Shown in pieces: positions 18,875-38,192 of a stretch of DNA of 64,000 nt. The stretch comes from a bacterium (lineage in GTDB: Bacteria; Actinomycetota; Acidimicrobiia; Spongiisociales; ZC4RG35). The stretch is taken from the NCBI GenBank assembly GCA_028823995.1, contig JAPPFD010000009.1:89500-153499 (forward strand), read 5' to 3'. A model generated the notes under the pieces. It did not search any database and was not told where the DNA came from. It saw only the letters and a program-made list of their open reading frames with translations. A program made the position numbers and the translations under genes. Position 1 is the first letter of the stretch, and each line of letters begins with the position of its first letter.

Positions 18875-18960
18875 CGGCGCTCCGGGACGGCGGCGACCCG
18901 GCCGGGAGGGAAGGCGGAGAAGCGGCAGGCCCATGCCCATTCCTGATAAGGTATGTCCCC

Positions 18961-19350: not shown

Positions 19351-19413
19351 GGCGGGCCCGTTCGGGCCGACTTGGCAGGTCCGGCGGGGGGACGCCAAGT
19401 TACAATGAAGGGT

Positions 19414-19854: not shown

Positions 19855-20530
19855 GCAGCGGGACCTCTCCATCGGGGAGGTGATCAAGGTCCTCAAGAAA
19901 GACTTTCCCGAGATCACCGTCTCGAAGGTGCGGTTCCTGGAGACAAAGGGCATGATCCTCCCGCGCCGCACCGAAGGGGGGTACCGGCGGTTCGACCGGA
20001 CCGATGTGGCCCGGCTCCGATACATCCTGGGACAGCAGCGGGACCACTTTCTTCCACTCAAGGTGATCAAGTCCAAGCTGGCCGCCTGGGAACGGGGAGA
20101 CGACCCCCATGACCCGACGGGCTCGGACGGCTCCCTCCTGGAAGAGGCGGGTGAGCCGATCACCCGCGCCGACGTGTTGCGGCGCAGCGGCATGAGACCC
20201 GATCAACTGGAGGACCTGGTCGCCCATCGGATCATCTCCCCGCTGCGGGGGGAGGAGGACATCTTCCCTCCCGAGGCCGGTCCGGTGGCGTCGGAGGCCA
20301 AGCGCCTGATGGACCGGGGTCTGAGTGGTCGCCATCTCCGCTCCATCCGTTTGGCGGTGGACCGGGAAGTGGACCTGTTCCGGTCGGTGGCGGGCCCCCT
20401 GATGAGGGTGCAGTGGCTGGGCGAGGGCGGCGAGCATGTCCAGGACTTGCTGATAGGGTGCGCCGACGCGCTGGTCGGCATCCATCGGGCCTTGCTTCTG
20501 GCTTCTCTCCGGGCGGAGTTGCGCCGCTGA
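19847..20530 (+). CDS. MerR-family transcriptional regulator (FtsR/Rv1828-like)
   Basis: LSIGEVI...ITVSKVRFLE...RTEGGYRRF...HFLPLKVIK. Confidence 0.92.
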   Translation: MTEQRDLSIGEVIKVLKKDFPEITVSKVRFLETKGMILPRRTEGGYRRFDRTDVARLRYILGQQRDHFLPLKVIKSKLAAWERGDDPHDPTGSDGSLLEEAGEPITRADVLRRSGMRPDQLEDLVAHRIISPLRGEEDIFPPEAGPVASEAKRLMDRGLSGRHLRSIRLAVDREVDLFRSVAGPLMRVQWLGEGGEHVQDLLIGCADALVGIHRALLLASLRAELRR

Positions 20531-20553
20531 AAACCCCCACCCGCCTCGGGTTG

Positions 20554-21621
20554 ATGGTGGCGTGCCTGGCCACGCTCCTGGTAGCGGTGATGGGCGCCAC
20601 GGCCACGGCCAGTCCCCTGTGGGTCGAGCCGCCCCCTCTTCCCTGGACTCTGGTTCCCGATCCGCCGGAACTCGCCGCCGAGTCGTGGGTGCTGTTCGAT
20701 GAACGCCACGGGGTGGTGCTGGCGGAGCACAACGCCGACCAGCGCAGGCCGATGGCTTCAACCACCAAGCTGATGACCGCCCTTCTGGCGGTGGAGGCCG
20801 GTGATCTCTCCTCTCCCGTGCGGGTGAGCGAGGCTGCCGTGTCGATAGGGGAGGCGGGAGTGGATCTCGTGGAGGGAGAGGTCTTCCTGTTGCGCACCCT
20901 GGTGAGGGCCCTTCTGATCCGCTCGGGCAACGACGCGGCCTATGCGGTGGCCGAGAACGTGGGCGGAAGCGCCCAGGAGTTTGTGAGGATGATGAACCAG
21001 CGGGCCTCCGAACTGGGTCTGGTGAACACCTCCTACGCCAATCCCCATGGTCTCGATCATCCCGACCAGTACTCCACGGCTCGGGATCTCCTGGTCCTGA
21101 CCCGGGAGGCTCTCTTGCACCCGGAGTTGGTCGAGGCGGTGGCCACCCGTCAGATCTCTCTCCGGGATTCGCCGGACGGCCAGGAACGGGTCTACACGAA
21201 CACCAATCAACTGCTGTTCGACTACGAGGGAGCGATCGGGGTGAAGACCGGGTACACCGACGACGCCGGAAGGGTGCTGGTGGCGGGCGCCGTGAGACAG
21301 GGCAGGAGGCTTCTGGCGGTGGTGATGAACACCGAGGACCACTTCGCCGAAGCAGAAGCGCTGCTTGACTTCGGGTTCGACTCGTTCGGGTCAGTCCCCG
21401 GTCTGGCCTTTTCCGATCTGAAGATAAACCGCAGCCAGCTATTGGCCGAGTCGGCCACCCCCACCACGATCGCCGACCTCCCGGTGGAGACCGAGGAGGT
21501 CCCGGAGGCGGAGGTGGTGATCACCCGCGAACAAGTGGCGATCCGGGTGGGTGAACCTCCCGGGGGGCTGGGTGATCTGTTGGGTTGGATGCTGGGCGTC
21601 TTCTCCTCCGAAGACCCATAG
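20554..21621 (+). CDS. D-alanyl-D-alanine carboxypeptidase (peptidase S11); start uncertain
   Basis: STTK, SGN and KTG motifs. N-terminal signal-like segment. Confidence 0.92.
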   Translation: MVACLATLLVAVMGATATASPLWVEPPPLPWTLVPDPPELAAESWVLFDERHGVVLAEHNADQRRPMASTTKLMTALLAVEAGDLSSPVRVSEAAVSIGEAGVDLVEGEVFLLRTLVRALLIRSGNDAAYAVAENVGGSAQEFVRMMNQRASELGLVNTSYANPHGLDHPDQYSTARDLLVLTREALLHPELVEAVATRQISLRDSPDGQERVYTNTNQLLFDYEGAIGVKTGYTDDAGRVLVAGAVRQGRRLLAVVMNTEDHFAEAEALLDFGFDSFGSVPGLAFSDLKINRSQLLAESATPTTIADLPVETEEVPEAEVVITREQVAIRVGEPPGGLGDLLGWMLGVFSSEDP

Positions 21622-21630
21622 CCCGCGTTC

Positions 21631-22365
21631 TCAGCGCCCACACCTTCTCAGCAGCAACCGGGTGTCGGAGGTTATGGTCCGCCAGTTCAGCTTGGACTCC
21701 CCGGCCACCCGATCCCTGATCACCGTGTCGACTCCGGTTGCCCGGAGCCGTCTGGACATCAGGACCGCGATCAGGACCTTGAAGCCGTGCGGCGCCATCC
21801 CTTCCAGGGCTTCGGCCAGGACCGACCGGCGGGTTCCGAAGAAACCGGACTGGGGGAAGCGCAGCCCCCTGGTCCGGCGGGGCATCCGCAGGCGCGTCAG
21901 CAGTATCGAGGTCCGGGTGAGGGCCATGCGGTACCACCTCTTCCCCCGCTGCTCCAACTCTCCCACACACAGGTCGTACCCGTTCGCCAGCGCCGCGACC
22001 ATCTCTTCCACCGCGGCCGGGTCGTGTTGTCCGTCGGCGTCCATCACCACCACCAGTTCGTGACGGGCCGCGTGTGCGGCGTTGCGGACCGCCTCGGCGA
22101 GCCCTCCTCCGTCGCACACTCGCACCCGGCGGTCTCCGCCGGCCAGGGCTGTCTGCCCGGTCGGGCTGCGCTCGCCCCTCACCAACGAGCCATCGGCGTG
22201 GTCGGCGGCGGCCACCAGCACTTCGGCGTCTTGCGGTAGGTACTCCAGCAACTCGGCCAGGGTGGTCCCGATGACATCCGTCTCGTTGTAGGCGGGCATG
22301 AGGACCGAGAAGGGGACTCCTAGGGGAGGGTGACCGTTCCGGGTCTCGGTCTCCGACGCCTTCAT
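21631..22365 (-). CDS. GT2 glycosyltransferase (polyprenol-phosphate mannose synthase-like)
   Basis: SVLMPAYNE, VVVMDADGQHDP, SGFF and GFKVL motifs, GESK tail. Confidence 0.85.
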   Translation of the reverse strand: MKASETETRNGHPPLGVPFSVLMPAYNETDVIGTTLAELLEYLPQDAEVLVAAADHADGSLVRGERSPTGQTALAGGDRRVRVCDGGGLAEAVRNAAHAARHELVVVMDADGQHDPAAVEEMVAALANGYDLCVGELEQRGKRWYRMALTRTSILLTRLRMPRRTRGLRFPQSGFFGTRRSVLAEALEGMAPHGFKVLIAVLMSRRLRATGVDTVIRDRVAGESKLNWRTITSDTRLLLRRCGR

Positions 22366-22487
22366 GGGCAATAGTTTGGCCGCATGGCGATGAGATGCTA
22401 AACCGGTCGGGACGGAGAACGCCCGCCGGGCGGGCTCGCGCAGTCGATCCTGGGTCATGGGATGGGGGTCATTAAGATAGGAAAGCC

Positions 22488-23078
22488 ATGAACGACGCTG
22501 ACCGGCTGTTCGGCCCGAGCACCGTCTCTGAAGTGATCACCTCCACCGAGATCGCGGAACGGGTGGCCGAACTGGGCAGGGCCCTTACCACCGAATACCG
22601 GGACCGCTCACCCGTGATGGTGGGGATAATGAAGGGATCGGTGTGCTTTCTGGCGGACCTGGTGAGGAACATGGATCTTGAGATGGAGATCGAGTTCCTG
22701 GCGCTCAAACGCTACAGGGAGGGCCCCTATGTCGGTATCGCCATGGACCTCTTCACCGATGTCGGTGGACGAGACGTGATCGTGGTCATGGACATGGTGG
22801 ACACCGGTTTCAACCTCGACGCCATCCACCGGTTGTTGAGAGAGCGTGCCCCGGCTTCCATTGCCACGGTTGCCCTTCTGGACCGGAAGGTGCGTCGGCT
22901 GATCGAGGTGCCCCTGGAATACCGCGGCTTTGAGGTCGGATACGACTTCCTGGTGGGATACGGCTTGGACTGGGATGGCCGCTACCGGGGGCTGCCTTCG
23001 ATTTGGGCGGTGCTCGATCGGTCGGCCCTCGAAACCGATCCCCATTTGCTCGACCGCCACGTGTTTGCGGAGAGGTAG
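22488..23078 (+). CDS. hpt: Hypoxanthine phosphoribosyltransferase-like protein (divergent motifs)
   Basis: VGIMKGSVCFLADL, VMDMVDTG, ALLDRK and FLVGYGLDWDGRYRGLP motifs. Confidence 0.85.
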   Translation: MNDADRLFGPSTVSEVITSTEIAERVAELGRALTTEYRDRSPVMVGIMKGSVCFLADLVRNMDLEMEIEFLALKRYREGPYVGIAMDLFTDVGGRDVIVVMDMVDTGFNLDAIHRLLRERAPASIATVALLDRKVRRLIEVPLEYRGFEVGYDFLVGYGLDWDGRYRGLPSIWAVLDRSALETDPHLLDRHVFAER

Positions 23079-23081
23079 CCC

Positions 23082-23099
23082 CCCTCCAGTTGTGGAGGG
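23082..23099 (+). terminator. Small hairpin between convergent hpt and purN
   Basis: CCCTCC-AGTTGT-GGAGGG inverted repeat. No U-tract. Confidence 0.35.
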
Positions 23100-23144
23100 C
23101 GCGCCCCGGCCTCCATCGCCGCGGTTGCCCTCCCGGACGGGTCG

Positions 23145-23759
23145 TCAGCGCCGCTCTTCGAGAAGTGTTGTCACCGCGTGGACCAGTAGCCGGTGCTCTA
23201 CCCGGTGGATCCGCTCGGTGAGGCTGTGGATCGAGTCGTCGTCGTGTATCGGTATCTCTTCGGAGGTGATGACAGGACCGTCATCCACGCCCTCGTCCAC
23301 GACGTAGTGAACCATCACGCCGGCGGACGTGACTTCCCCGGCTCGATAGGCCGCCCATGTTTCTTCGATTGCGTTAGCTCCGGGGAACATCCCGGGAAGG
23401 GCGGGATGGAGGTTGATCACCTGTTTCGGAAATCGTTCGAGAAACGCCATTGACAACAGGTGCATCCACCCGGCCAGCACCACCAGATCGGGCCGGGCGG
23501 CGGCTACCGCGTCGGCCAGGTCGGCGTCGTAGCGGGACCGGGCCGCCAGGGGATCGGGTTCACCTTCGACATAGGGCCCGAGCAGGCGGCATTCCTCGGG
23601 GATTCCTGCGCGGCGGGCACGTTCCTGGGCGGGCACCCCCCGGCGATTGACGATCACCTTGGTCACTTGGGCCGGAACCCGACCGGCCGCCACCGCGTCG
23701 ATCAGTGCTTGCAGGTTGGTGCCCGAGCCCGAGGCCAGGACGACCAGCCGTCCCGTCAC
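23145..23759 (-). CDS. purN: Phosphoribosylglycinamide formyltransferase
   Basis: LASGSGTNLQAL, VLAGWM, NLHPAL and DDGPVI motifs. Confidence 0.96.
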   Translation of the reverse strand: MTGRLVVLASGSGTNLQALIDAVAAGRVPAQVTKVIVNRRGVPAQERARRAGIPEECRLLGPYVEGEPDPLAARSRYDADLADAVAAARPDLVVLAGWMHLLSMAFLERFPKQVINLHPALPGMFPGANAIEETWAAYRAGEVTSAGVMVHYVVDEGVDDGPVITSEEIPIHDDDSIHSLTERIHRVEHRLLVHAVTTLLEERR

Positions 23760-24757
23760 CGCCAGGAACCGGCGAACGCCACCCGTTCACCCCCGTCCCG
23801 GACGGGCATCACTTCCCCGATCTCCAGACAGCCCAGCTCCGTGGCTCGCCTACCGAGAGCCCTGTCGATGACCGCCGCCATACCGATGCCCATGTTCCAT
23901 GTGCGGAATGCCTCACCATCTTCGATCCCGCTCCAATCCACAAGGGTCACGAAGGGCTCCGGTATCTTCCACGATCCCAGTTCGACCGTCACACCCAGGC
24001 CAAAGGGGAGCACTCTGGGAAGGTTGTCGACCAGGCCGCCACCGGTTACATGCGCCAGGGCCTTGGGCGCCACTCCTTCGGCTTGCAGCGAGCGCATGAA
24101 CGGCAGGTAGCTGCGGTGAGGGGCCAGCAGGCGATCGATCATGGCTGGCGGCGGTTCCCGGTCCTCGATCAGCCGACGGATCAGCGAATACCCGTTGGTA
24201 TGCGGCCCGCTGCTGGGTAGGCCGACCAGCAGGTCCCCTTTTCTCACCTCGTCCAAACGGGGGAGAAGACCATCGCGGTCGGCCGTCCCTACAATCGTTC
24301 CGACGACGTCCACCGCTCCGGCCGCATAGACACCCGGCATCTCCGCCGTCTCACCTCCCAGCAACGCACAGCCTGCCTCCCGGCAGGCCTCCGCCATACC
24401 CGCAACGATTGCGACCACCACCTCGGGTATCAGTTTCGATGTCGCGATGTAGTCGAGGAAGAATCTCGGCTCGGCGCCGACCACCAGGATGTCGTTGATG
24501 CAGTGGTTGACCACATCGACTCCTACTCCGTGCCAGCGGTCGTACCGAGCCGCCAGCGCCACCTTCGTGCCGACCCCGTCAGTGGATGCCACCAGCACTT
24601 TCCCGGGTCCGAGCCGGTCGGCCGCGTAAAGGCCGCCGAATCCTCCCCCGCCCTCCAGTACCTCGTCGGTAGCGGTGGAGGCCACCGCCGAGGCCAGGAG
24701 TTCCACGGTTCTGTTGCCGGCATCTATGTCGACCCCGGCGTCGCGATAGGTAATCAT
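23756..24757 (-). CDS. purM: AIR synthase
   Basis: TYRDAGVDID, STDGVGTK, GGETAEMPG and HTNGYSL motifs. Confidence 0.96.
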   Translation of the reverse strand: MITYRDAGVDIDAGNRTVELLASAVASTATDEVLEGGGGFGGLYAADRLGPGKVLVASTDGVGTKVALAARYDRWHGVGVDVVNHCINDILVVGAEPRFFLDYIATSKLIPEVVVAIVAGMAEACREAGCALLGGETAEMPGVYAAGAVDVVGTIVGTADRDGLLPRLDEVRKGDLLVGLPSSGPHTNGYSLIRRLIEDREPPPAMIDRLLAPHRSYLPFMRSLQAEGVAPKALAHVTGGGLVDNLPRVLPFGLGVTVELGSWKIPEPFVTLVDWSGIEDGEAFRTWNMGIGMAAVIDRALGRRATELGCLEIGEVMPVRDGGERVAFAGSWR

Positions 24758-26067
24758 CCGATGTCCACCTCCCGGCGCGGCAGTGATCGGGCCCCGGGTG
24801 GGAGGCGGCGGCCGATGTCCCGCCGGTAATGCGCACCCTCGAAGGAGATGGACTCGGTGCCCGCGTAGGCACGCTCCGTCGCCTCCGCCAGGGTGCTCCC
24901 CAGGGCGGTGACGCCCAGCACCCTCCCCCCGGTGGCAAGGGTCACGCCGTCGATGCGGTCGGTCCCGGCATGGAACACCAAGCATCCCGTCAGTTTCGCC
25001 TCTTCGAGACCGGTGATCGGCGCAGGTGGCGCAGAACCGGTCGGATAACCGGCAGAGGCCATCACCACGGTGGCGGACGCCGACCGCGACCAGTCCACCG
25101 AGACGCCGTCCAGCGAACCGGTGGCGCATCCGAGCATGACCTCGAAGAGGTCGGTCTCCAAGAGTGGCAGCACCGCTTGCGCTTCAGGATCGCCCATGCG
25201 GCAGTTGATCTCCAGCACCTTGGGCCCGGCGTCGGTGATCATCAGCCCGAAGTAGATCACGCCTCGATACGGCGTACCGGTCTCGCCGAGCGCGTCAAGG
25301 GTCGGCCGGATGATGCGGTCGCTCACTTCGTCGATGAGCGCTGCGCTGGCGACCGGGGACGGTACGAAGGCGCCCATTCCTCCCGTATTCGGTCCCCTGT
25401 CACCGTCGAAGAGCCGTTTGTGGTCCTGCGCCGAGGGCATGACGACGAAGTCGGTCCCGTCGCTGAAGGCAAGCACCGACACCTCGGTACCCCACAGCCG
25501 CTCCTCCACCAACACCTCTCGGCCTGCTTCACCAAACCGCCCTTCGATTAGCATCGCCCGGAGAGCCGCAGCCGCCTCCCCATGGGTCTCGGCGACCACC
25601 ACTCCCTTGCCGCCCGCCAGGCCACTGGCCTTGATGACCGGGGGGGACGGGAGTTGCTCGAGATAGGCGATGGCGAGGTCCGGGTCACGGAACGAGGCCG
25701 ATGCGCCGGTCGGTATCGAGAGCGCGTTCAAGAAGGTCTTGCAATAGGCTTTCGAAGCCTCGAGGCGGGCGCAGGCGGCGGTGGGGCCGAAGGCAGGGAT
25801 ACCGACCGCATCCAGCGCATCGGTAAGTCCCGCAGCCAGCGGGGCTTCGGGACCCACTGCCACCAGATCGACCGATTCATGGCGGGCAGCGGCCACCAAC
25901 CCGGCAAGGTCACCTGCTCCGACGGCCAGGTTCTCGCAATGCTTCTCCGAAGCCGTCCCTGGGTTACCGGGAGCTACGAGGATCCGGTCCACCCGGGGGG
26001 ACTTGCCCAGGGACCAAGAGAGCGCATGCTCGCGGCCTCCTCCACCCACGACAAGCACCGTGGTCAC
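24754..26067 (-). CDS. purD: Phosphoribosylamine-glycine ligase
   Basis: GGGGREHAL, VGPEAPL, AQDHKR, GPNTGGMGA and GGRVL motifs. Confidence 0.97.
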   Translation of the reverse strand: MTTVLVVGGGGREHALSWSLGKSPRVDRILVAPGNPGTASEKHCENLAVGAGDLAGLVAAARHESVDLVAVGPEAPLAAGLTDALDAVGIPAFGPTAACARLEASKAYCKTFLNALSIPTGASASFRDPDLAIAYLEQLPSPPVIKASGLAGGKGVVVAETHGEAAAALRAMLIEGRFGEAGREVLVEERLWGTEVSVLAFSDGTDFVVMPSAQDHKRLFDGDRGPNTGGMGAFVPSPVASAALIDEVSDRIIRPTLDALGETGTPYRGVIYFGLMITDAGPKVLEINCRMGDPEAQAVLPLLETDLFEVMLGCATGSLDGVSVDWSRSASATVVMASAGYPTGSAPPAPITGLEEAKLTGCLVFHAGTDRIDGVTLATGGRVLGVTALGSTLAEATERAYAGTESISFEGAHYRRDIGRRLPPGARSLPRREVDIG

Positions 26068-26071
26068 CTGC

Positions 26072-27502
26072 TCACTCTCCCCACACTGATGCGAAGCGAT
26101 CCTTGAGACCGAGTTGCAACTGAACGAAACTCTCAGGTTCGAACGGGTACTTACCGGTGAAACAGGCGTTGCAGTAGCCGTCTTCGGAAGAGAGTGCTCT
26201 CATCAGACCCTCCAGCGAGAGATAGGCGAGTGAGTCGGCGCCGATCTCCTCACAGATCTCGGCCACCGACATGCGGGCGGCGACCAGATGCTCCGGGGAG
26301 TCTATGTCGATCCCCATGTAGCAGGGATGGGTGATGGCGGGACACGCCACCCGCACGTGTACCTCCGCGGCTCCGGCGTCGCGCAACATACGCACCAACT
26401 GTCCGACAGTCGTCCCCCTCACGATCGAATCGTCGACCATCACGATCCGCCGGCCTGCCAGGTTATCCCGGAGGGGATTGAATTTCATGGCCACCCCGGC
26501 ATCGCGCAGCTCCTGGGTCGGTTCGATGAAAGTCCGGCCCACATAGCGGTTCTTGATCAGCCCCTCGGTGTAGGGCAGATCCGATTCCTGGGCGAAGCCG
26601 ACCGCATGAGGCGTTCCCGAGTCGGGCACGGAAAGGACCAGGTCCGCTTCGACCGGGGCTTCCCGCGCCAGTTCCCTGCCTAGCCGCTGTCGCACGCTGT
26701 GCACCAGGTCGCCGTCGTGGACGGTGTCGGGCCGGGAGAAGTAGATGTGCTCGAAAGTGCAGAAGGCCCGGGCGGGCGGAGGCGCCCCCTGTTCGATGTG
26801 CAGCCCCGAAGCGTCGATCCTGGCAATCTCCCCTGGCTGCAGCTCGGCCACGAAGCTGGCGCCGGTCGTTGAGAACGCACAGGTCTCCGACGCAAGTATG
26901 TAGCCATCATTGATCTCCCCGATCACCAGGGGACGGAATCCACGCGGATCGCGGACTCCGTAGATAGCCTGGCGGGTGAGAATGGTGAGCGAGTAGGCTC
27001 CCTCGACCCGCCTCATGAGCGTCCGGATCCTTTCCAGCCAGCTACCCGACGCCCCGGTGAGGACATGGACCATCAGCTCGGTGTCGGAGGATGTCTGCAA
27101 GCCCACGCCCTGTTCCAGAAGCTCCCGGCGAAGCTGGGGGGCGTTCACGAGGTTGCCGTTGTGGGCGACCGCCAGCGGACCGTCGATGGTCTCGATCACC
27201 TGCGGCTGAGCATTGCGAAGGGTGGAACCGCCGGTGGTGCTGTAGCGGTTGTGGCCGATGGCCACCGAACCTTTCAAAGTCGAGAGGATGTCCTCGTTGA
27301 AAACCGAGCCGACCAGCCCCTCACCCTTGTGCACATGGGTGAACAGGCTGTCGTGGCTGACGATACCGGCGGCCTCCTGACCTCGATGCTGCAGGGCGAA
27401 GAGCCCGAAGAACGCTATCCGGGCCGCTTCCCGGCCGGGCGCATAGACGCCCACCACCCCGCACTTCTCGCGGGGGCTGTCACGGTCAAGCTCGCCGATC
27501 AT
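26072..27502 (-). CDS. purF: Amidophosphoribosyltransferase
   Basis: EKCGVVG, LQHRGQE, HNRYSTTG and VDDSIVRGTT motifs. Confidence 0.97.
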   Translation of the reverse strand: MIGELDRDSPREKCGVVGVYAPGREAARIAFFGLFALQHRGQEAAGIVSHDSLFTHVHKGEGLVGSVFNEDILSTLKGSVAIGHNRYSTTGGSTLRNAQPQVIETIDGPLAVAHNGNLVNAPQLRRELLEQGVGLQTSSDTELMVHVLTGASGSWLERIRTLMRRVEGAYSLTILTRQAIYGVRDPRGFRPLVIGEINDGYILASETCAFSTTGASFVAELQPGEIARIDASGLHIEQGAPPPARAFCTFEHIYFSRPDTVHDGDLVHSVRQRLGRELAREAPVEADLVLSVPDSGTPHAVGFAQESDLPYTEGLIKNRYVGRTFIEPTQELRDAGVAMKFNPLRDNLAGRRIVMVDDSIVRGTTVGQLVRMLRDAGAAEVHVRVACPAITHPCYMGIDIDSPEHLVAARMSVAEICEEIGADSLAYLSLEGLMRALSSEDGYCNACFTGKYPFEPESFVQLQLGLKDRFASVWGE

Positions 27503-28665
27503 GACCGCCGCCGAAGCCTGCGGCGCGCCGCCAGGGCGCGTTGCAAAGCCCGCTCGACCGTGGTGTCGGTGCACGTGATGTGGCCCATCTTGCGACCGGT
27601 GCGGACCTCCTCCTTGCCATAGAGATGGAGGTGCGCGCCAGGGTCGGACAGGGCCTCCGACCATGCAGGTTGGCGGCCGGGATGATCGTTCCAGAGATCA
27701 CCGAGAAGCTGCACCATGGCCGCAGGACGGCAAGAGCCGTCACCGAGGGGCAGGCCGCATATCGCCCGGATATGCTGACCGAACTGGCTGGTGGAGGCCG
27801 CCTCGATGGTGCAGTGGCCGCTGTTGTGGGGACGCGGAGCGATCTCGTTCACCACTAGGCTGTCTCCGGCTACGAACATCTCAACGCAGAGGACCCCGAC
27901 CAGGTCGAGGTGACGGGCGATCGCGGTTGCGAGGTCCACGGCAGCTCCGACCACCCTGGGCGGGACCGATGCGGGTGGCGTAACGGTCGTGTCGAGTATC
28001 CGGTTGACGTGGACGTTCTCCATGACGCCGTGATGGGCCACTTCGCCATTGACCCCCCGGGCTACCACGACCGAGATCTCCACGTCGAAGGGAACAACCT
28101 CCTCGACCAGCATGCGCTCGGGACCGAGTGCATCCACAACCCCGCGCACCGCGGCCTGGTCAACCTTCGTGAGTCGGACCTGGCCGCGGCCATCATATCC
28201 GAACCGCATGCGCTTGACGATGACCGGCAGACCGAGATCCGCTACGGCGCGATCCAGGTCGGTTGCCGTAGCCACTTCGCGAAACGCCGCCACCGGCGCC
28301 CCGGCGGCCATCAGGGCGCGGCGCTCCCGACCCCGGTCCTGGGCAGCCGCGATCACCGATCCGGCCGGCCGAACCGGTACCCCCGACCGGGCAGCCAGAT
28401 CTGCAAGCAGGCCCACTTCGACATTCTCGAACTCCCAGGTGATGACGTCGGAGAGATCTACAAACTGCTGCACGGCCAGTTCGTCGTCGTAGGAGGCCGC
28501 CACCTCGACGTCCGCCACCCGCCCGCCCGGGGTGTCCTTGGCCCCTCCGGTCAGAACGGCCACGCGGTAGCCGAGCCGATGAGCCTCGAAGGACAGCATC
28601 CTCCCCAGTTGTCCGCCACCCACGATGCCGATCATGCCTCCGGGCTCCAACGGGCGGTTCATCAT
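27499..28665 (-). CDS. purK: N5-CAIR synthase
   Basis: [32 protein letters not shown] and RKMGH motifs. Confidence 0.96.
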
Positions 28666-29153
28666 AGTTCGAGCTCGACCTCGCTCACGGCCGCGGCCCG
28701 CCTTTCACGGTACGCCTTGAGCCTCCCGGCCAGCCGTGGATCGTGACGGGCCAGCATCGCCACCGCGTACAGGCCGGCATTGGTGGCCCCCGCCTCGCCG
28801 ATCGCCATGGTGGCGACCGGTACCCCGGCTGGCATCTGCACGATCGACAGCAGCGAATCCATACCTCTCAGGGCTCGGCTCCTGATCGGAACACCTATCA
28901 CCGGAACAATCGTGTGTCCGGCGACCATCCCCGGCAGGTGGGCGGCGCCACCGGCCCCGGCGATGATGACCACCAGCCCCCGGTCGGAAGCAGATAGGGC
29001 GTAGTCCGCCATGAGGTCGGGAGTGCGGTGCGCCGAGACGACCCTGGACTCGTATGGAACGCCGAAGTCTTCGAGCACCTCGGCGGCCTGTTGCATAGTG
29101 GGCCAGTCGGACTGGCTGCCCATGATGATCCCAACGAGCGGGCGTCCGGTCAA
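28662..29153 (-). CDS. purE: N5-CAIR mutase
   Basis: IMGSQSD, SAHRTP and [14 protein letters not shown] motifs. Confidence 0.97.
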
Positions 29154-29289
29154 GCTCCTTCCCCTCCGCCCCCTGTCGGCGAGTTGCCGGATGAAGCAAT
29201 CACTCTATGTACACAGACCAGTGCACCGGTCCTTTCCCGCTTCCAAAGCCGACGAGGAACTGGTCCACCCGCCGGAGTCTTGTGCACCA

Positions 29290-30300
29290 TTATGCACGCT
29301 GGTACGAGCGAAGCGCGGTAACGACGCGAGGCGTGGCCGGGTAGGCCGCCGGAACCAGCGGCCGGCCGGTGAGGACCTCGAACACCTCCAGGTAAGCTCT
29401 GGCGGTCCTGACCGCCAACCCGGTTGCCAGCGGCGGCGGGTCACCCTCGCCCACGAATCCCTGAGCGGCAAAGGCGATGCGCACGACTTCCTTGTCCAGA
29501 TTCTCCGGCTCCCCGCCGGCGGCGAGGCGCTCTTCCACGGTTGCCGCCCTCCAGAACCGAGACGAGTCGGGTGTGTGGACCTCGTCGATGATGACCACGC
29601 CTCCCTCCGGGTCGAGACCGAACTCGTACTTAGTGTCGACCAGCACCAAGCCGGCTTCCGCCGCCGCCTGTTCACCCCGCTCGAACACCGAAAGGGCGAT
29701 ACTCCGCACCTCATCCCAGAGCCGGGCCTCCACCAGGCCGCTGTCGACGATGTCCCCCTCGCTGATCGGACGGTCGTGGGCGCCCATGGATCCCTTGGTG
29801 GTGGGGGTGATGATCGGTCGCGGCAGCGGATCGTTCTTCTTCATACCATCGGGGAACCGCATGCCGTAGACGTGGCGGGCGCCGGCTGCGTAGAGGGTCC
29901 ACAGCGAGGTGCCGGTCGTCCCGGTCAGGCGGCTCCGAACCACCACCTCCACCGGCAGAGGCCGGCACTTGCGGGCGATCGTCACGTTGGGGTCCGCCAC
30001 CTCGACCAGGTGGGTGGGTACCAGGTCGGCGATCCGATCGAACCACCAGGCCGACAACTGGGTGAGAACCTGGCCTCGGTACGGCACGGTTCCCAGCACC
30101 CGGTCGAAGGCCGACAGACGGTCGGTGGCGATCAACGCCAGGCGGTCACCCAGATCGACGATGTCACGCACCTTGCCCCGCACGACGGGACCGATGCCGC
30201 CCACGTCCGCGGCTTCGATACCTGTGAAGGGCTGGGCCAGGGGGAGCTGGAAGTCGGGTCTCACGACCTCGACCTCGTCGGGCTGCTCAACGGGCGGCAT
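29290..30300 (-). CDS. purC: SAICAR synthetase
   Basis: RGKVRDI, ATDRLSAFD, DTKYEFG, DEVHTPDSSRFW and LDKE motifs. Confidence 0.96.
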   Translation of the reverse strand: MPPVEQPDEVEVVRPDFQLPLAQPFTGIEAADVGGIGPVVRGKVRDIVDLGDRLALIATDRLSAFDRVLGTVPYRGQVLTQLSAWWFDRIADLVPTHLVEVADPNVTIARKCRPLPVEVVVRSRLTGTTGTSLWTLYAAGARHVYGMRFPDGMKKNDPLPRPIITPTTKGSMGAHDRPISEGDIVDSGLVEARLWDEVRSIALSVFERGEQAAAEAGLVLVDTKYEFGLDPEGGVVIIDEVHTPDSSRFWRAATVEERLAAGGEPENLDKEVVRIAFAAQGFVGEGDPPPLATGLAVRTARAYLEVFEVLTGRPLVPAAYPATPRVVTALRSYQRA

Positions 30301-31078
30301 CGACGAATGCTTTGAAGAGGGGTAGCCCCCGCGCCCCGGGCGGCCCCCCTGGCCGTTGCCAGTCGACCACATGGTCTTCGGGATGCGGCATGAGACCGAC
30401 GACCGCCCCGGTGGCGTCACAGAGACCGGCGATGTCACCTGCCGAGCCGTTGGGATTGGCCGGATAAAGACCCCCGGCCAAGCGGTCCCCGCCTTCGTGG
30501 CCGTCCTCCGACAGGTAGCGGAAGGCGATCCTCCTCTCGGATTCGAGGGTGCCGATGACCTCGGAATCGCTCACCGCCACCCGGCCCTCGCCATGGGCCA
30601 CAGGGCAGCGGATCTTCATGCCCGCCATGGAGCCGAGCCAGCCGGACCGGACCACCGGCTCGACCCGCAACGTCACCCACCGGCACTCGAAGCGTCCGTT
30701 GGCATTGTCGGTGAGCGTAACCCTCCGGCGCCCCTCCGGTCCGCTCGGTTCCCCCAGCAGGCCGGACTTGAGAAGTGCTTGGAAACCGTTGCAGATCCCG
30801 AGCAAGGGCCGCCCCGAGCGGACGGCGTCGGCAAGTTCATCGGACAGCCAGGTGCGCAGCTCAAGGGCGAGACGCGCTCCGGCTCCGAGGGCATCGCCAT
30901 AGGAGAAGCCCCCCGGCAGCAACAGGCCGCCGAACTCGGACATCGAGACGACTCCTGTACGGAGGTCGGTCATGGACACGATGCGCGGGTCACCCCCGGC
31001 CAACTCCACGGCCACCGCCGCCTCGGCGTCGCGGTTGGTTCCGGGAGCGTGAAGGATGAGGATCGGTGGCAGGGTCAC
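30287..31078 (-). CDS. purQ: FGAM synthase glutaminase subunit
   Basis: PGTNRD, PGGFSYGD, GICNGFQ, AHGEG and MPHPE motifs. Confidence 0.96.
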   Translation of the reverse strand: MTLPPILILHAPGTNRDAEAAVAVELAGGDPRIVSMTDLRTGVVSMSEFGGLLLPGGFSYGDALGAGARLALELRTWLSDELADAVRSGRPLLGICNGFQALLKSGLLGEPSGPEGRRRVTLTDNANGRFECRWVTLRVEPVVRSGWLGSMAGMKIRCPVAHGEGRVAVSDSEVIGTLESERRIAFRYLSEDGHEGGDRLAGGLYPANPNGSAGDIAGLCDATGAVVGLMPHPEDHVVDWQRPGGPPGARGLPLFKAFVDAAR

Positions 31079-33930
31079 GACTCTGCTCCCTGCACGGTGA
31101 AGGCCCGCACGGCTGCATCGAGGTCGATCGAGACCGAATCTCCGTTTACCCCTATCGGCTCGGCCCCTCCGGCGACGGCGATCTTGATCGAGGAACCCTC
31201 GGTCACCACTCCGATGCGACGACCCAGCGGGCCGAGCCGGGCCGCGAGGTGGTCGCGCCTCGCCGGCGCCGACTCCAACAGCAGTCGGCCGGCCGCCTCG
31301 TTGGTGAGGGCGGTGAGAATGCCTCTTGAACCCACCATCGGGACGGTTGCCTCGACCCCGAGCCTTCCCCCGATGGCCATCTCTGCGATCGCCACCGCGA
31401 TGCCACCGTCGCTCACGTCGTGGGCGGCTGTCACGATGCCGTCGGCGATCAGGCGATGAACCGCCATGTAGCGCTCCAGCGGCGTGTCCAATGTCGGCGG
31501 CACGCGCCGGTCGCCGATTCCCAGCAGGTCGTCGACAAGAGAGCCGCCGAGTCGGTCCGATGGGTCCCCGACCAGCCAGAGATCGCACCCGGCCCGGGTG
31601 AACGCACTGCTGACCGTCCGGTGCAGGTCGGGTACCAGCCCGAGGGCTGAGATGAGCAAGGTACCGGGAATCGCCTCTCCAGCGAATTCGTTGAACAGGC
31701 TGTCCTTCCCGGAGATGAACGGCATGCGGTAGCGGCGCGCTCCCTCCAAGCATCCCTCCAGCGCCCTGACCAGCGATCCGAGCCGGTCGGGCTTGGTGGG
31801 GTCGCCCCAGCAGAAGTTGTCGAGCAGGGCGACCCGGGCCGGATCGGCCCCCACCGCCACGAGATTCCTGACCGCCTCGTCGATGGCGTGCAGCGCCATG
31901 GACCAGGGATCGAGACGGCCGACACGCGGATTGATGCCCACCGACAGAGCAACGGCCGCGTCATGGTGCCAGGTGCCCAGGGGCTTGAGCACCGCTGCGT
32001 CCCCGGGGCCATCGGCCCGGACGCCGACGAACGGGCGACCGATGGTGCCGCCGCGTACCTCGTGGTCGTAGGTGCGCACTATGGACTCCTTCGAGGCTAC
32101 GGTCGGATGGGACAGGAGTTCGAGGACCACTCGGGTGGGGTCGACCTCGGGCACCTCTCCGGACTCGGGTACGGGGTCCGCCCAGCGCCCGACCATCTCT
32201 TTGCGCGGGACTCCGTGATGGAGAAACTCCATAGAGAGATCCACTACCGGCGTATCACCATGTCGCACCACCAGACGCCCGGTCCCGGTGAACCGCCCGA
32301 GGTCGGTCATCTCCACTTCATGGTGCTCGCACAACTCCCGTAGGGCTCCAACCCTGCTGCCCGGCACCGCCAGAACCATGCGCTCCTGGGCCTCGGAGAG
32401 CCAGATCTCCCATGGTTCCAGGCCCGCGTACTTCAGGGGCGCGCCCGCCAGGTCCACTTCGGCGCCGAGGCGCTCTCCCATCTCACCGACCGCCGAGGAG
32501 AACCCGCCGGCTCCGCAGTCGGTGATGGCGTGATAGAGGCGCAGGTCCCGGGCCTGCTCGACCACCTCGATGCACCCTTTCTGGGTGATCGGGTCGCCGA
32601 TCTGCACGGCAGTTCCCGCCTGCCCGGCGGTGGCTTCGTCCATCCCTGCCGAGGAGAAGGTGGCGCCGTGGATACCGTCCCGGCCGGTTCGTCCTCCGAT
32701 GGCGATGATCCGGTCGCCGGCCCGCGGCTCGGTGGGATGTGACCCCGAGGGCAGCAAACCCAACGCCCCGCAGTAGACGAGCGGGTTGGCGACGTATCCC
32801 TCGTCATAGACCACTGCGCCGTTTACGGTGGGAAGACCCAGCTTGTTGCCGTAGTCGCCGATACCTGCCACCACGCCGTCTCGCACCCGACGGGGATGGA
32901 GCACACCCGGGGGCAGGTCGCGGTCCGCAGGGTCGGGCGGACCGAAACACAGGACGTTCGTACAGGCGATAGGCCGCGCCGACACCCCCATTACGTCCCG
33001 AACCACTCCACCTATGCCCGTATTGGCGCCCCCGAAGGGTTCGAGAGCCGATGGATGATTGTGGGTCTCGACTTTGAAGGCGAGATCGAAGTCATTGTCG
33101 AAGGCCACTATGCCGGCGTTGTCGTCGAACGCAGAGCGCAGCCAGGGTGGAGCAAGTTCCTCCGTGACCCTTCTGAGGGCAGCAAGTAGGCCCTCGTGGG
33201 AAGAGACCGCAACCGAGCCGTCCGATTTCGTGTGTTCCAGGCGGATATGAGCCCGGAACGTCTTGTGCATGCAGTGTTCCGACCAGGTCTGGGCCAGCGT
33301 TTCGAGCTCGGCATCGGTCGGATCCCTCCCCTCTCGCGCGAAGTGATCCTGGATCGCCCTCATCTCCCCAAGATCCAGGGAGAGGAGACCCTCTCTGCTG
33401 AGACGCACGAGATCGGCGTCCGCCAAACCGGCCAGCTTCACGGTGTTGACCTGCACCTCCCCCTTAGCCGGCGAGTCGAAACAGGGCCGGACCGAACCAA
33501 GTGAATGCACTTCGATGATCTCGTTGGCCAGCAGTTGTCGGCTTATGGCAGATACGGCCGCCTCGTCGAGATCGCCTATCAGTTCGTAACGGCGGGCGGT
33601 GGAAGCCCGCACCGGGGGTAGGCCCAGGGCGGCTGCTGCTCGTTCCAGTTCCCTGGCCTCCACATCCGTCACGCCCGGACGCGGTGCGACCTCCACGACG
33701 GGATAGGAAGTGGGCAAAAGGGAACCCACAATCACCTCGTCCACGACCGGGTCGACCAGGACTTCTCGACTCAGCCGGTCGATTTCCTCCGTGGACAGGT
33801 CGCCCTGCAGGTGATAGACCCTGCTGACCCGACACCCGACCAGACCCGGCACCCCTAGGAGGCGAACAAGGTGGACGATCTGACCCGCTCTGGGGTCGTC
33901 GGCAGCGGTCACCTCGATGCGGGTGGTCAC
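31075..33930 (-). CDS. purL: FGAM synthase subunit PurL with N-terminal tandem PurS-like domains (start 33930 or 33954)
   Basis: WSEHCMHK, ETHNHPS, GRTGRDG, DCGAGG, SEAQERM and SGKDS motifs. Extra ~150-aa N-terminus with LVDPVVDE and LLANEIIE. Confidence 0.95.
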   Translation of the reverse strand: MTTRIEVTAADDPRAGQIVHLVRLLGVPGLVGCRVSRVYHLQGDLSTEEIDRLSREVLVDPVVDEVIVGSLLPTSYPVVEVAPRPGVTDVEARELERAAAALGLPPVRASTARRYELIGDLDEAAVSAISRQLLANEIIEVHSLGSVRPCFDSPAKGEVQVNTVKLAGLADADLVRLSREGLLSLDLGEMRAIQDHFAREGRDPTDAELETLAQTWSEHCMHKTFRAHIRLEHTKSDGSVAVSSHEGLLAALRRVTEELAPPWLRSAFDDNAGIVAFDNDFDLAFKVETHNHPSALEPFGGANTGIGGVVRDVMGVSARPIACTNVLCFGPPDPADRDLPPGVLHPRRVRDGVVAGIGDYGNKLGLPTVNGAVVYDEGYVANPLVYCGALGLLPSGSHPTEPRAGDRIIAIGGRTGRDGIHGATFSSAGMDEATAGQAGTAVQIGDPITQKGCIEVVEQARDLRLYHAITDCGAGGFSSAVGEMGERLGAEVDLAGAPLKYAGLEPWEIWLSEAQERMVLAVPGSRVGALRELCEHHEVEMTDLGRFTGTGRLVVRHGDTPVVDLSMEFLHHGVPRKEMVGRWADPVPESGEVPEVDPTRVVLELLSHPTVASKESIVRTYDHEVRGGTIGRPFVGVRADGPGDAAVLKPLGTWHHDAAVALSVGINPRVGRLDPWSMALHAIDEAVRNLVAVGADPARVALLDNFCWGDPTKPDRLGSLVRALEGCLEGARRYRMPFISGKDSLFNEFAGEAIPGTLLISALGLVPDLHRTVSSAFTRAGCDLWLVGDPSDRLGGSLVDDLLGIGDRRVPPTLDTPLERYMAVHRLIADGIVTAAHDVSDGGIAVAIAEMAIGGRLGVEATVPMVGSRGILTALTNEAAGRLLLESAPARRDHLAARLGPLGRRIGVVTEGSSIKIAVAGGAEPIGVNGDSVSIDLDAAVRAFTVQGAES

Positions 33931-34035
33931 GCACACCGAACTTAGCCGAGACAACCGCCGATGAGGTGTATTCCCGCCGGCCTCGCCCTGTCACGCCCTG
34001 GCGGCTGCGCGCCGATCGCGGGCCGGGCAGAGCGC

Positions 34036-34157
34036 GGCTACAGCCTCAAGAGAGATGGCTGCCATCGGGGGCTCCCCTCGATTGGGCGGTTTTGGACCGG
34101 CCGGCTCTCGAAACCGATCCCCACATTCTCGACCGTCAGGTGTTTGCGGAGAGGTAG
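34036..34157 (+). pseudogene. hpt: Displaced, frameshifted 3' fragment of hpt
   Basis: Reads GYSLKRDGCHRGLPSI[-1 nt]AVLDRPALETDPHILDRQVFAER* versus hpt GYGLDWDGRYRGLPSIWAVLDRSALETDPHLLDRHVFAER*. About 25 differences in 123 nt. Confidence 0.9.
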
Positions 34158-34169
34158 TATCGGCTGGCG

Positions 34170-34709
34170 ATGTCGGAAAACATTCCCATGGCCATCGACG
34201 GCGTCCAGGTCGGATTCTCCTCGGCCACCCCGGTTGTCTTGCTCAAGGAGGCCGACGGGGAGAGATACCTTCCCATCTGGATCGGGGCGGTCGAGGCCAC
34301 GGCCATCGTGGCGGCGTTGGAGGAGATGGTGCCGCCCCGACCGCTCACCCACGACCTGTTGCGGATGGCGGTGGAATCTCTGGGGGCGGAGGTGGACAGG
34401 GCGGTGGTGACCGAGGTCCGCGACAATGTGTTTTACGCCGAGTTGGTGCTGACCACCGGCGGGGGAGAGGTGACTGTCTCCTGTCGCCCTTCGGACGCCA
34501 TCGCGCTGGCGGTGAGAACCGAGGCGCCGTTGTTCGCCCACCACGATGTGCTGGACGAGGCCGGGGTGATGATCAAGGCGGCCGAGGAACCCGAGGAGCA
34601 GATCGAGGAATTCCGGCGTTTCCTGGAGGCCGTCAGCCCCGAGGACTTCTCGTCCGGCGGGCCTGCGGCGGGTCCGGACGATCCAGACCCGGACCCGGCC
34701 TCCCCCTAG
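34170..34709 (+). CDS. Bifunctional nuclease family protein (DUF151)
   Basis: RYLPIWIGAVEA, RPLTHDLL and RPSDAIALA motifs. Confidence 0.94.
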   Translation: MSENIPMAIDGVQVGFSSATPVVLLKEADGERYLPIWIGAVEATAIVAALEEMVPPRPLTHDLLRMAVESLGAEVDRAVVTEVRDNVFYAELVLTTGGGEVTVSCRPSDAIALAVRTEAPLFAHHDVLDEAGVMIKAAEEPEEQIEEFRRFLEAVSPEDFSSGGPAAGPDDPDPDPASP

Positions 34710-34813
34710 GGGGCGCCCCGCCTGATCGGGGAGATGGTTGGAAATGGGGGGCGGAGCCGTTATGGTTGATGCTTCGGTAAATCACCGGTCTGTAATCACA
34801 AAGGAGTAAGGCG

Positions 34814-35299
34814 GTGAACCAAGCGGAAAGGGGATATCGCGCCCCCCAGGTCTGCCGGATGGTGGGCATCACCTACCGGCAGTTGGACTATTGGGCCCGC
34901 ACGGGGTTCATGGTGCCCTCCCTACAGCAAGCCAGGGGGTCGGGTAGCCAACGCCTCTATTCCTTCGCGGACCTGGTGCAGCTGAAGGTGATCAAGAAGC
35001 TCCTCGACGCCGGGATGGACCTCAGGCGGATCAGGTCGGCCTTCGCGGCGTTGTCCAATCAGAGGAGTACCTGGAGCTGGGAGGACGGTGAGGTGACCCT
35101 GGCGTCCGACGGCGCCTCGATATACGCCTTGAGGAGTCCCGAAGAGGTGATCGACCTTCTTCAGAAGGGCCAGGGGGTGTTCGGGGTGGCCCTGGGTCCG
35201 CTGGTGGAAGAGGTTGCCGGAGAGGTTCACCAACTGTCGAGGACATCGGAGGTCGAGGAGGGGTACCGCGCCTCCCCGTCGCAGTCGGAGGTCATCTAG
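34814..35299 (+). CDS. MerR-family regulator (Rv1830-like)
   Basis: GITYRQLDYWART...GSGSQRLYSF...LLQKGQGVFG. AAAGGAG RBS. Confidence 0.93.
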   Translation: MNQAERGYRAPQVCRMVGITYRQLDYWARTGFMVPSLQQARGSGSQRLYSFADLVQLKVIKKLLDAGMDLRRIRSAFAALSNQRSTWSWEDGEVTLASDGASIYALRSPEEVIDLLQKGQGVFGVALGPLVEEVAGEVHQLSRTSEVEEGYRASPSQSEVI

Positions 35300-35379
35300 G
35301 CGCCCGACCGTCCCGTTGACTCCCGGACCGCCGGACGCCCTTAGACTACGGACTCGATTCGTCTCTTCGGTCAAGGACA

Positions 35380-38150: not shown

Positions 38151-38192
38151 GGTGGCTTTTATTGAAGGGCGGTCCGCGCCAACATTAGGGAA

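Follow-up and report, generated by a model that had tools for sequence, protein, structure and literature searches.

In a group of sponge- and coral-associated Acidimicrobiia within Ca. Spongiisociaceae, a promoter-to-stop purine operon stands behind an intact hpt gene and is flanked on both sides by relics of a second hpt copy. This arrangement probably stems from a one-off illegitimate insertion, giving a haplotype that was later exchanged between species by homologous recombination, and not from a mobile element. The locus was analysed in a window of 64,000 nt (the whole stretch of DNA studied; genomes used for comparison carry L numbers), where the order is hpt with its TAG, hpt' fragment B2, purN to purSL, hpt' 3' end D2 with its TAG, and BFN:

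22290..22487, no strand assigned: left edge of the haplotype-linked block, comprising the 5' end of GT2 and the spacer between GT2 and hpt, where the hpt promoter lies
22488..23078, plus strand: intact hpt (196 aa; Pfam Pribosyltran), allele type linked to the insert
23083..23141, plus strand: relic B2, a decayed copy of hpt 22826-22886 (alignment to hpt)
23140..34009, minus strand: purine block, from the promoter to 5 nt beyond the purN stop (Pfam and NCBIfam)
23145-23759, minus strand: purN
23756-24757, minus strand: purM
24754-26067, minus strand: purD
26072-27502, minus strand: purF
27499-28665, minus strand: purK
28662-29153, minus strand: purE
29290-30300, minus strand: purC
30287-31078, minus strand: purQ
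31075-33930/33936, minus strand: purS-purL fusion
33937..34009, minus strand: conserved upstream region of the purine block, kept across five contexts
34010..34036, no strand assigned: filler between the purine block and D2, with no match to hpt or other pur contexts
34037..34157, plus strand: relic D2, the hpt 3' end including TAG (Smith-Waterman (SW) match to hpt)
34170..34709, plus strand: BFN-domain gene (Rv1829-like; Pfam BFN_dom), the first right-flank gene

A first-pass annotation of this DNA had noticed that the 3' end of hpt recurs beyond the operon with a 1-nt deletion and a bias towards synonymous differences, and both observations hold. Positions 22956-23078 of hpt pair with 34036-34157 at a local alignment score of 71 (purSL-BFN spacer against hpt; shuffle mean 11, sd 1.4, z=43). 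The two stretches are identical at 97-98 of 121-122 positions (~24 differences) and share the same terminal TAG, D2 has its 1-nt deletion at ~34083, and 6 of the 9 codons that differ from hpt in the last 80 nt of D2 do so synonymously. The left part of D2 (34037 to ~34082) is old and decayed, while the right part (~34083-34157) is of the empty-site type: over its last 80 nt it shares 95% identity with hpt of the empty-site relative L007 and 91% with that of L008, but only 82-87% with the intact hpt of insert-bearing genomes, with 4 of 72 sites differing from L182 and none from L010. This supports the earlier suggestion that both hpt ends were once functional in different lineages, the downstream copy carrying a different, once-functional allele. 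In L200, D2 is decayed throughout, its type is mixed to insert-type, and the 1-nt deletion is absent.

The second relic, B2, had been missed by the first-pass annotation. It matches hpt with a score of 33 (shuffle mean 9.5, SW z=18.6), including 47 nt ungapped at 83% identity, and runs from 0-5 nt past the hpt TAG up to the stop codon of purN. Six insert-bearing lineages carry B2, one of them the deep-branching L181; it was found in L001, L002, L009, L181 and L200, while L003 has lost most of it. The B2 consensus has 87.5% identity with the insert-linked type of hpt and 75% with the empty-site type. B2 and D2 have the same orientation, lie in the correct order and directly flank the purine block, though asymmetrically, as they correspond to hpt 22826-22886 and 22956-23078, respectively. 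Since B2 follows immediately upon the hpt stop and adjoins purN, the operon sits inside a 5'-truncated second hpt copy.

The state without insert is found in eight related lineages, in which the BFN gene lies 12-15 nt after hpt, and the direct hpt-BFN-MerR-gcvT run that had been predicted upon removal of the insert was recovered in L004-L008, L012, L182/L183 and L191-196. In the window, Pfam supports BFN, MerR and gcvT downstream of D2, BFN begins 12 nt past the relic TAG as it does after intact hpt in empty-site genomes, and the sequence at the junction with BFN matches L007, L182 and L183 at every position. The insert is present or absent at one locus between collinear, homologous flanks; hpt-BFN adjacency is the ancestral state, and the operon is a derived insertion. 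No intermediate was detected among the relatives, neither hpt with partial hpt' but no operon nor hpt disrupted by the operon, and every genome in which the insert was found is a member of one family. Both junctions are shared by three independent assemblies of the window's strain, 99.7% identical to the window (L197, a 29x long-read contig of 1.47 Mb; L198, an Illumina MAG; L199, a JGI contig), and recur in the complete long-read chromosome L001, in the Illumina MAGs L002/L010/L172 and in the further lineage L200.

Pfam confirmed the purine operon annotated between the hpt copies on the opposite strand, in the order purSL, purQ, purC, purE, purK, purF, purD, purM, purN. Every long ORF of the insert (23145 to 33954) is a pur gene, with the PurF, PurD, PurN, PurS/L/Q, PurM, PurK, PurE and PurC domains all present and the ORFs intact; by NCBIfam, PurL scored over its cutoff and PurQ and PurC slightly under their equivalog cutoffs. 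The operon covers steps 1-7 of the IMP pathway without purB and purH, and its gene order is the same as in other Acidimicrobiales (L090, L091, L099, L175 and L176). The insert is exactly one promoter-to-stop operon of ~10.87 kb, and the same block occurs in at least five genomic contexts, across all of which homology extends from ~50-58 nt upstream of the purSL start to TGACGACC just past purN; the four other contexts have no hpt fragments attached. A TANNNT-like TAAGTT at 33939-33944 and a GATACA box farther upstream may constitute the promoter, and the purSL GTG start is probably leaderless; a simple sigma-70 scan found none.

The insert-bearing pur operons are monophyletic and of single origin, the tree reading ((insert-bearing),(L178,(L188,L180))),(L173,L174),(L170,L189),L171. 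The window copy is sister to the copy at the URO-D/unk218 site, with an operon dS of 0.39-0.46 to L178 versus 0.16-0.37 inside the insert-bearing clade. The URO-D/B12, operon, unk218 context is common to L178 and L173/L174 and is thereby bracketed as ancestral. The operon is native to the family, and relocation or within-family transfer fits better than gain of a new pathway. Hence, of the earlier proposal that a whole pathway was acquired at the salvage locus, the derived and non-vertical insertion stands and the novelty of the pathway does not, the operon being family-native (dS ~0.4). In the L184/L188 lineage the unk218 site is vacated and the operon lies 60 kb off on the same contig; a DDE transposase is encoded 1.4 kb upstream of the operon in L188, and TnpB near the vacated site in L184.

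The salvage gene has stayed intact. Its product, a putative hypoxanthine(-guanine) phosphoribosyltransferase, scores 142 bits against TIGR01203 (HGPRTase), under the cutoff of 150; relatives of either haplotype all fall at 141-150, so that no change in hpt is specific to one haplotype, and the dN/dS of hpt is 0.16-0.35. The haplotypes differ beyond the 3' end, over the whole of hpt and its promoter. At ~22441 the density of sites fixed between insert-bearing and empty genomes increases from 0.8 to 8.6 per 100 nt, and such sites continue from there across the entire gene. Sites uniting the window, L001 and L002 with L007 end after 22123, and sliding identity drops from ~22290 in two sister pairs; in 22290..22487 homology to empty-site relatives persists and the phylogenetic signal switches. 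Composition, which the first-pass annotation had proposed to compare, also differs, with a GC3 of 0.791 in the hpt and operon region versus 0.841 outside (p=1.4e-4).

The history of this block conflicts with that of its flanks. In neighbour-joining trees, built from 0.6-3 kb of one locus and not from whole genomes, both the upstream (2238 nt) and the downstream flank (3123 nt) group the empty L007 with the window, L001 and L002, and pair the empty L182 with the insert-bearing L200, each at 100% bootstrap, which suggests a position of L007 and L182 within the insert-bearing genomes. The hpt tree, in contrast, splits cleanly by insert into an insert-type clade and an empty-type clade at 96-100% bootstrap, the insert-linked allele class being monophyletic. 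Cross-haplotype hpt dS is 0.55-0.68 regardless of flank dS (0.27-0.64), and so also in the sister pairs, where flank dS is 0.27-0.33 and flank DNA differs by 10-13%; within a haplotype, hpt dS is usually 0.5-0.8x flank dS. The data support that the insert arrangement was not vertically inherited, and the case in which all relatives carry the operon here by vertical descent, named by the first-pass annotation as contrary to its reading, is contradicted by the empty sites and the conflicting trees. The window's operon is itself mosaic, its purE-purSL part showing a dS of 0.00-0.07 to L001/L002 and its purK-purN part, with hpt, 0.14-0.19 to L009. The right crossover appears to lie at ~34083 in the window and L010 versus ~34155 or beyond in L200, and the left switch at ~22290-22440 in both sister pairs, the only two pairs with both flanks. 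The operon split from its nearest relatives at a dS of ~0.42, versus 0.55-0.68 between insert-linked hpt and empty-type alleles; the hpt allele is thus apparently older than the operon split, and hpt and operon may have different histories.

We found no integrase, resolvase or transposase domain in any ORF of the insert by Pfam, in agreement with the earlier statement that no integrase is present; there is no tRNA at the locus, Rfam gave no match, no direct or inverted repeats of at least 9 nt are shared by the block ends in 11 loci, and no IS ends or transposase genes flank the cargo in the window. An IS-flanked composite transposon is not supported, as neither transposase nor IS lies on either side. 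Since the junctions lack recombinase, IS and repeats, the insertion event was most likely illegitimate. We propose that in one ancestral lineage the family's own purine operon became inserted into a second, 5'-truncated copy of hpt that began immediately past the intact hpt stop codon, an event that would have deleted ~68 nt of the truncated copy and added ~27 nt of filler (34010-34036, which diverges fast between lineages), leaving hpt intact and BFN with its native upstream sequence. Two routes may have led to this: a partial tandem duplication whose spare copy then received the operon, or one repair event with multiple template switches. In L005 the 3' half of a CDP-alcohol phosphatidyltransferase gene is present in two additional tandem copies, making a 3'-partial tandem duplication plausible in this family. 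On the other hand, a duplication junction exactly at the stop codon needs selection or luck. The haplotype, consisting of the hpt promoter, the linked hpt allele, B2 and the operon, would later have moved between species by recombination in the conserved flanks, with right-hand crossovers varying by lineage and that of the window lineage falling within D2 at ~34083. The varying location of the operon would then reflect acquisition of a copy and loss of the resident one.

Alternatively, both haplotypes could be ancestral and have persisted through speciations as a trans-species presence/absence polymorphism, with flanks recombining and hpt locked to the indel, so that no repeated transfer is needed. 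The uniform, deep cross-haplotype hpt divergence at any flank distance agrees with this, as does the narrow high-divergence tract abutting the indel, and the scaling of hpt dS with flank dS in both haplotype classes (ratios ~0.5-0.8) is as compatible with a long-lived polymorphism as with repeated transfer. We nevertheless regard it as rather unlikely, as no species was shown to carry both haplotypes and the flanks of sister pairs are as diverged as given above, recombination between lineages inside the island is clear and recent (as seen in the dS of the window's operon parts to L001/L002 and to L009), the hpt split is deeper than the stem of the pur operon (0.42), and no balancing force is known. 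Somewhat more doubtful are two separate readings. The purine operon may be a recurrently relocating promoter-to-stop cassette, as it occurs in five or more contexts, always with the same tight boundaries and without repeats or mobility genes, and the hpt locus may be a long-lived trans-species presence/absence polymorphism with a deeply diverged allele locked to the operon in a supergene-like manner.

We consider it improbable that the operon made a single intragenomic jump from URO-D/unk218 to hpt followed by strict vertical descent without lateral exchange. The site shared by the nearest operon, L178, and the more distant L173/L174, the vacated site in L184/L188 and the short operon stem are compatible with such a jump, but insert-bearing genomes are non-monophyletic in both flank trees (the two mixed pairs), GC3 of hpt and operon is under that of the flanks, and hpt of the empty-site sisters belongs to a different allele class, so that the empty sisters are not deletion derivatives.

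The first-pass annotation had read the locus as an integrative element bringing its own hpt 3' end and displacing the native one, in which case the integrase would since have been lost. An 11-kb insert bordered on either side by a direct repeat of the hpt 3' end, with the target intact, the empty-site (native-like) type of the displaced end in the window and the lower GC3 inside are what such an element would leave, yet the model is largely refuted and we judge it very improbable: the insert has neither a recombinase domain nor spare ORF space for one, no att-like core or terminal repeats were found, divergence spans the whole of hpt and its promoter from ~22290-22441 and not just the part 3' of a crossover, B2 intervenes between the hpt stop and purN, the same block lies elsewhere without hpt fragments, and the displaced end in L200 is not of the empty-site type. 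Finally, although the genome was assembled from the metagenome of a community that contains several related strains, the chance that an assembly artefact or mixed-strain chimera produced a false hpt-end duplicate is negligible, given lineage-specific relic decay and the same junctions in L001, L197, L198, L199, L200 and L002/L010/L172.

Complex illegitimate rearrangements arise by partial tandem duplication or by replication template switching of the MMBIR/FoSTeS type, and the insertion haplotype resembles their products in joining a duplication of hpt 22826-23078, a 68-nt deletion, a large insertion and short untemplated filler. Here we infer the duplication or template switch, as well as the direction of each exchange, and the former from anatomy alone, at junctions with microhomology of at most 2 nt that have since decayed. 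Selfish-operon-style transfer, as described by Lawrence and Roth, moves a complete pathway unit, and here too nine consecutive-step genes move as one promoter-to-stop unit to different places; however, all movement is seen within one family, and the recipients probably already had the purine pathway. Integrase-driven islands, ICEs and prophages at gene or tRNA 3' ends share with this locus an intact target, a diverged 3'-end repeat beyond the insert and an 11-kb insert of composition unlike the flanks, but here recombinase, att core and terminal repeats are absent, the whole target and promoter differ between haplotypes, an extra target fragment lies between gene and cargo, and the cargo is one housekeeping operon found at other loci in relatives. 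Islet exchange through RecA-dependent flanking homology, as in capsule/O-antigen switching and Vibrio cholerae T6SS modules, is similar in its presence/absence block between conserved flanks, block-adjacent alleles that follow the block and not the genome, junction gene remnants and lack of mobility genes. [quoted passage not shown] Our locus differs in that the cargo is a core biosynthetic operon and not an accessory module, the partner haplotype is 'empty', and the relics come from a duplicated neighbour gene instead of a displaced predecessor module.

The locus represents an unusually well-resolved natural case of a core biosynthetic operon changing its chromosomal address in uncultured symbionts, in which one illegitimate event would have spared the neighbour gene via a partial duplicate and homologous recombination would then have spread the arrangement across species. 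It indicates that a repeated target-gene 3' end around an insert, resembling an integrative element, can arise without an integrase. A relocating cassette, if true, would be an unrecognised way of moving whole operons. The locus may serve as a marker for tracking recombination between co-resident sponge-symbiont species, and calls made from MAGs, such as 'purine prototroph', could come out differently for close relatives if recombinants lost the operon or ended up with two copies of it.

Pfam annotation of the window (G+C content 66.9%) places a nine-gene purine operon between hpt and the gene of a BFN-domain protein, in the following arrangement.

21631-22458, minus strand, glycosyltransferase gene
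22488-23078, plus strand, hpt
23145-33954, minus strand, nine purine genes: purN, purM, purD, purF, purK, purE, purC, purQ and a purS-purL fusion
34170-34709, plus strand, BFN-domain gene; behind it in turn MerR, gcvT, one unknown gene and the adenosine deaminase gene

Local alignment paired the 3' end of hpt (22956-23078) with a relic beyond the operon, D2 (34036-34157), at a score 43 standard deviations above shuffles, with about 24 mismatches, one base missing at about 34083 and the TAG common to both, confirming a repeat already noticed in the first-pass annotation. Within the last 80 nt of D2, six of the nine codons differing from hpt do so synonymously. The observation is extended by a second relic, B2 (23083-23141), in which hpt 22826-22886 recurs in decayed form (47 nt, 83% ungapped, z=18.6); it lies directly 3' of the hpt stop and has the purN stop as its right end. 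The order is intact hpt, TAG, B2 (the middle of a truncated second copy, hpt'), the operon, D2 (the 3' end of hpt'), TAG, 12 nt and BFN. The two relics share orientation and are correctly ordered, with about 68 nt of hpt (22887-22955) absent between them, and the operon thus lies within a 5'-truncated second hpt copy and not within hpt proper. Since the B2 consensus is 87.5% identical to the insert-linked hpt type vs 75% to the other type, hpt' was a copy of the allele that is intact today.

Neither integrase or transposase domains (by Pfam) nor a tRNA or Rfam family were found in the insert and its junctions, and no att-like or inverted repeats were found at the block ends; the integrative-element mechanism proposed in the first-pass annotation, with hpt itself as target, was thus not upheld. 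No riboswitch or other RNA was found at the junctions, where sigma-70 and terminator scans were also empty. A role of B2 as a terminator hairpin was rejected, as hairpins occur in some lineages but with folding energies no different from those of shuffles (z -1.0 to +1.1). In insert-bearing locus L003 (10589-10625), B2 is mostly deleted and only about 34 nt separate the hpt stop from purN, indicating that the relic is dispensable. A role of D2 as a conserved BFN promoter was also rejected; its last 80 nt are identical in the window and L010, but the same stretch is decayed in L200, and a recent recombination tract would explain the identity better than selection. At the purSL end of the operon, PurS is fused to the PurL N-terminus (953-959 aa; window 33930-33954), and the putative purSL GTG start 2-8 nt past a TAAGTT box suggests a leaderless transcript.

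A complete scan for hpt relatives led to Acidimicrobiia MAGs from sponges and corals; related proteins carry the names Ca. Spongiisocius or Spongiisociaceae. A JGI metagenome scan for hpt gave no match. The operon separates hpt and BFN in L001 (a complete chromosome), L002 (= L010, L172), L003, L009, L181 and L200. The empty sites predicted by the first-pass annotation are present in L004-L008, L012, L182/L183 and L191-196, where BFN starts 12-15 nt after the hpt TAG, and the far junction of the window matches their hpt-BFN junction almost base for base. An assembly artefact, which the same annotation had named as a refutation, is ruled out by three independent assemblies of the window strain (a 1.47-Mb contig from long reads at 29x, a MAG from Illumina data, and one JGI contig) that carry an identical spacer and are 99.7% identical to the window. 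B2 was found in every insert-bearing lineage, including its remnant in L003, and the insert-bearing operons are monophyletic in the Pur tree, which together points to a single origin of the insertion.

The flanks and hpt tell different histories. In neighbour-joining trees of both the upstream (2238 aligned nt) and downstream (3123 nt) flanks, empty-site L007 groups with the window, L001 and L002, and empty-site L182 with insert-bearing L200 (100% bootstrap each), with L181 (insert) and L008 (empty) on deeper branches, whereas hpt splits into one clade of all insert-linked alleles and a second clade of L007/L008/L182 (96-100% support). The divergence values follow the same division.

dS of hpt and its flanks within and between insert-bearing and empty-site haplotypes
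Window vs L007 (cross-haplotype): hpt 0.68; flanks 0.33 / 0.27
L200 vs L182 (cross-haplotype): hpt 0.64; flanks 0.29 / 0.33
All cross-haplotype pairs: hpt 0.55-0.68; flanks 0.27-0.64
Within-haplotype pairs: hpt usually 0.5-0.8 times flank dS

This pattern indicates lateral exchange of the hpt-linked operon arrangement between related species, the direction of which we infer. An alternative is a long-lived polymorphism, in which both haplotypes are old and have persisted in the group; within-haplotype divergence roughly follows flank divergence and therefore leaves room for this explanation, which we nevertheless consider unlikely. Relaxed selection on hpt after arrival of the operon does not account for the gap between hpt and flank dS, because dN/dS is unchanged (0.16-0.22) while dS doubled, and HGPRTase model scores are equal across haplotypes. 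Import of the right flank together with the operon is dismissed by the equal likeness of both flanks to L007. On the left, the last site uniting the window, L001 and L002 with L007 is at 22123, and fixed differences between insert and empty types rise tenfold at about 22441. On the right, the last 80 nt of D2 in the window and L010 are of the empty-site type (95% to L007, 4/72 differences to L182), bearing out the earlier suggestion that the two hpt ends derive from different functional alleles, whereas D2 of L200 is decayed throughout, mixed to insert-type and without the 1-nt deletion; hence the right crossover points vary by lineage. The proposed comparison inside and outside the island gave a GC3 of 0.791 for hpt and the operon vs 0.841 for the 41 other window genes (p=1.4e-4); in other contexts operon GC3 follows the host genome. 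The island is itself mosaic, with a breakpoint near 28660 at the purK/purE boundary: purE-purSL of the window is nearly identical to L001/L002 (dS 0.00-0.07), and purK-purN plus hpt are closest to L009 (dS 0.14-0.19, vs 0.25-0.46 to L001/L002). This split in dS indicates recent recombination among insert-bearing lineages.

The pur gene order recurs in other Acidimicrobiales (L090, L091, L099, L175, L176), and PurK homologues form a continuum of 75-89% identity before a gap down to 64%. Within the close PurK group the same 10.9-kb block occurs in at least five contexts.

Genomic contexts of the operon block
hpt / BFN: window, L001, L002, L003, L009, L181, L200
URO-D-B12 ... operon ... unk218-LbH: L173, L174, L178/L179; five further contigs assigned by their shared lengths
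Sulfatase / transposase ... operon ... HTH-sulfatase: L188, L180
AKR ... operon ... NIPSNAP-gpsA: L170, L189
Aldolase-like ... operon ... AdoHcyase: L171

Homology across contexts sets in 50-58 nt before purSL begins and ceases about 5 nt past the purN stop, with no terminal repeats common to the block contexts. The Pur protein tree reads ((insert-bearing),(L178,(L188,L180))),(L173,L174),(L170,L189),L171; as the URO-D/unk218 site is found in both L178 and L173/L174, bracketing makes it ancestral. On a 747-kb contig (746,921 nt; L184 8559-9233 and L188 2164-3153) this site is vacated, homology ending at the unk218 stop codon. The same contig carries the operon at a distance of 60 kb, with a DDE_Tnp_1 transposase 1.4 kb from the operon. 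An IS605-type TnpB is encoded two genes from the vacated site. Some relocations may have been driven by IS activity, of which none was seen at the hpt site. Nearby accession numbers (PurK MXY77522.1, hpt MXY74899.1) hint that a MAG with L007-type hpt carries the operon at the AKR/NIPSNAP site.

Operon dS is 0.39-0.46 between the window and L178 and 0.16-0.37 within the insert-bearing clade, which is not what a pathway brought in from a distant donor would look like. Chloroflexota were among the best non-family purN matches listed, from which close relatives were absent, but by its gene order and in the trees the operon belongs to Acidimicrobiales, and transfer from another phylum is rejected. 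As judged from order, trees and dS, the operon is a native of the family that has changed its location more than once, and the whole-pathway acquisition suggested by the first-pass annotation is not supported.

We propose that in one lineage the 3' part of hpt was duplicated in tandem, with the start of the copy exactly behind the hpt stop codon, and that the operon block landed in this spare copy, in one multi-switch repair event or in two events, with hpt functional throughout. Thereafter, as the pattern above indicates, related species exchanged the block with its linked hpt allele through homologous recombination in flanking DNA. Gain of a second operon copy by exchange, followed by loss of the resident copy, would alone explain the varying address in close relatives. 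The hpt allele linked to the insert seems to predate the split of the operon from its nearest relatives. In L005 (4491-5742), two additional copies of the 3' half (residues 98-191) stand in tandem behind the gene for CDP-alcohol phosphatidyltransferase, a second 3'-partial tandem gene duplication in the family and comparable to that proposed for hpt.

The cluster of gcvH, FHA (GarA-like), MerR (Rv1828-like), BFN (Rv1829-like), MerR and gcvT is conserved in actinobacteria, and in the window it falls within 18727-22458 and 34170-36426. In the family, the first MerR is separated from BFN by the genes of a D-Ala-D-Ala carboxypeptidase and a glycosyltransferase and by hpt, to which the window adds the pur operon, and this spot seems to gather insertions. 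Purine and one-carbon genes are grouped at the locus (hpt, pur, gcvH/T and, at 37095-38282, adenosine deaminase). Upstream of hpt in L006, a promoter-region segment of about 25 nt (…GGGATGCGTCCCTCATAAGAT), aligned to window ~22440-22470, is tandemly duplicated. Against the HGPRTase equivalog model (cutoff 150 bits), every hpt of the family, in the window and in all relatives, reaches 141-150 bits whatever its haplotype, and public annotations therefore call the product either 'hypoxanthine phosphoribosyltransferase' or 'phosphoribosyltransferase family protein'. The locus is a well-documented new case of known processes, namely an illegitimate insertion involving a duplicate of the target and subsequent exchange by way of homologous flanks.
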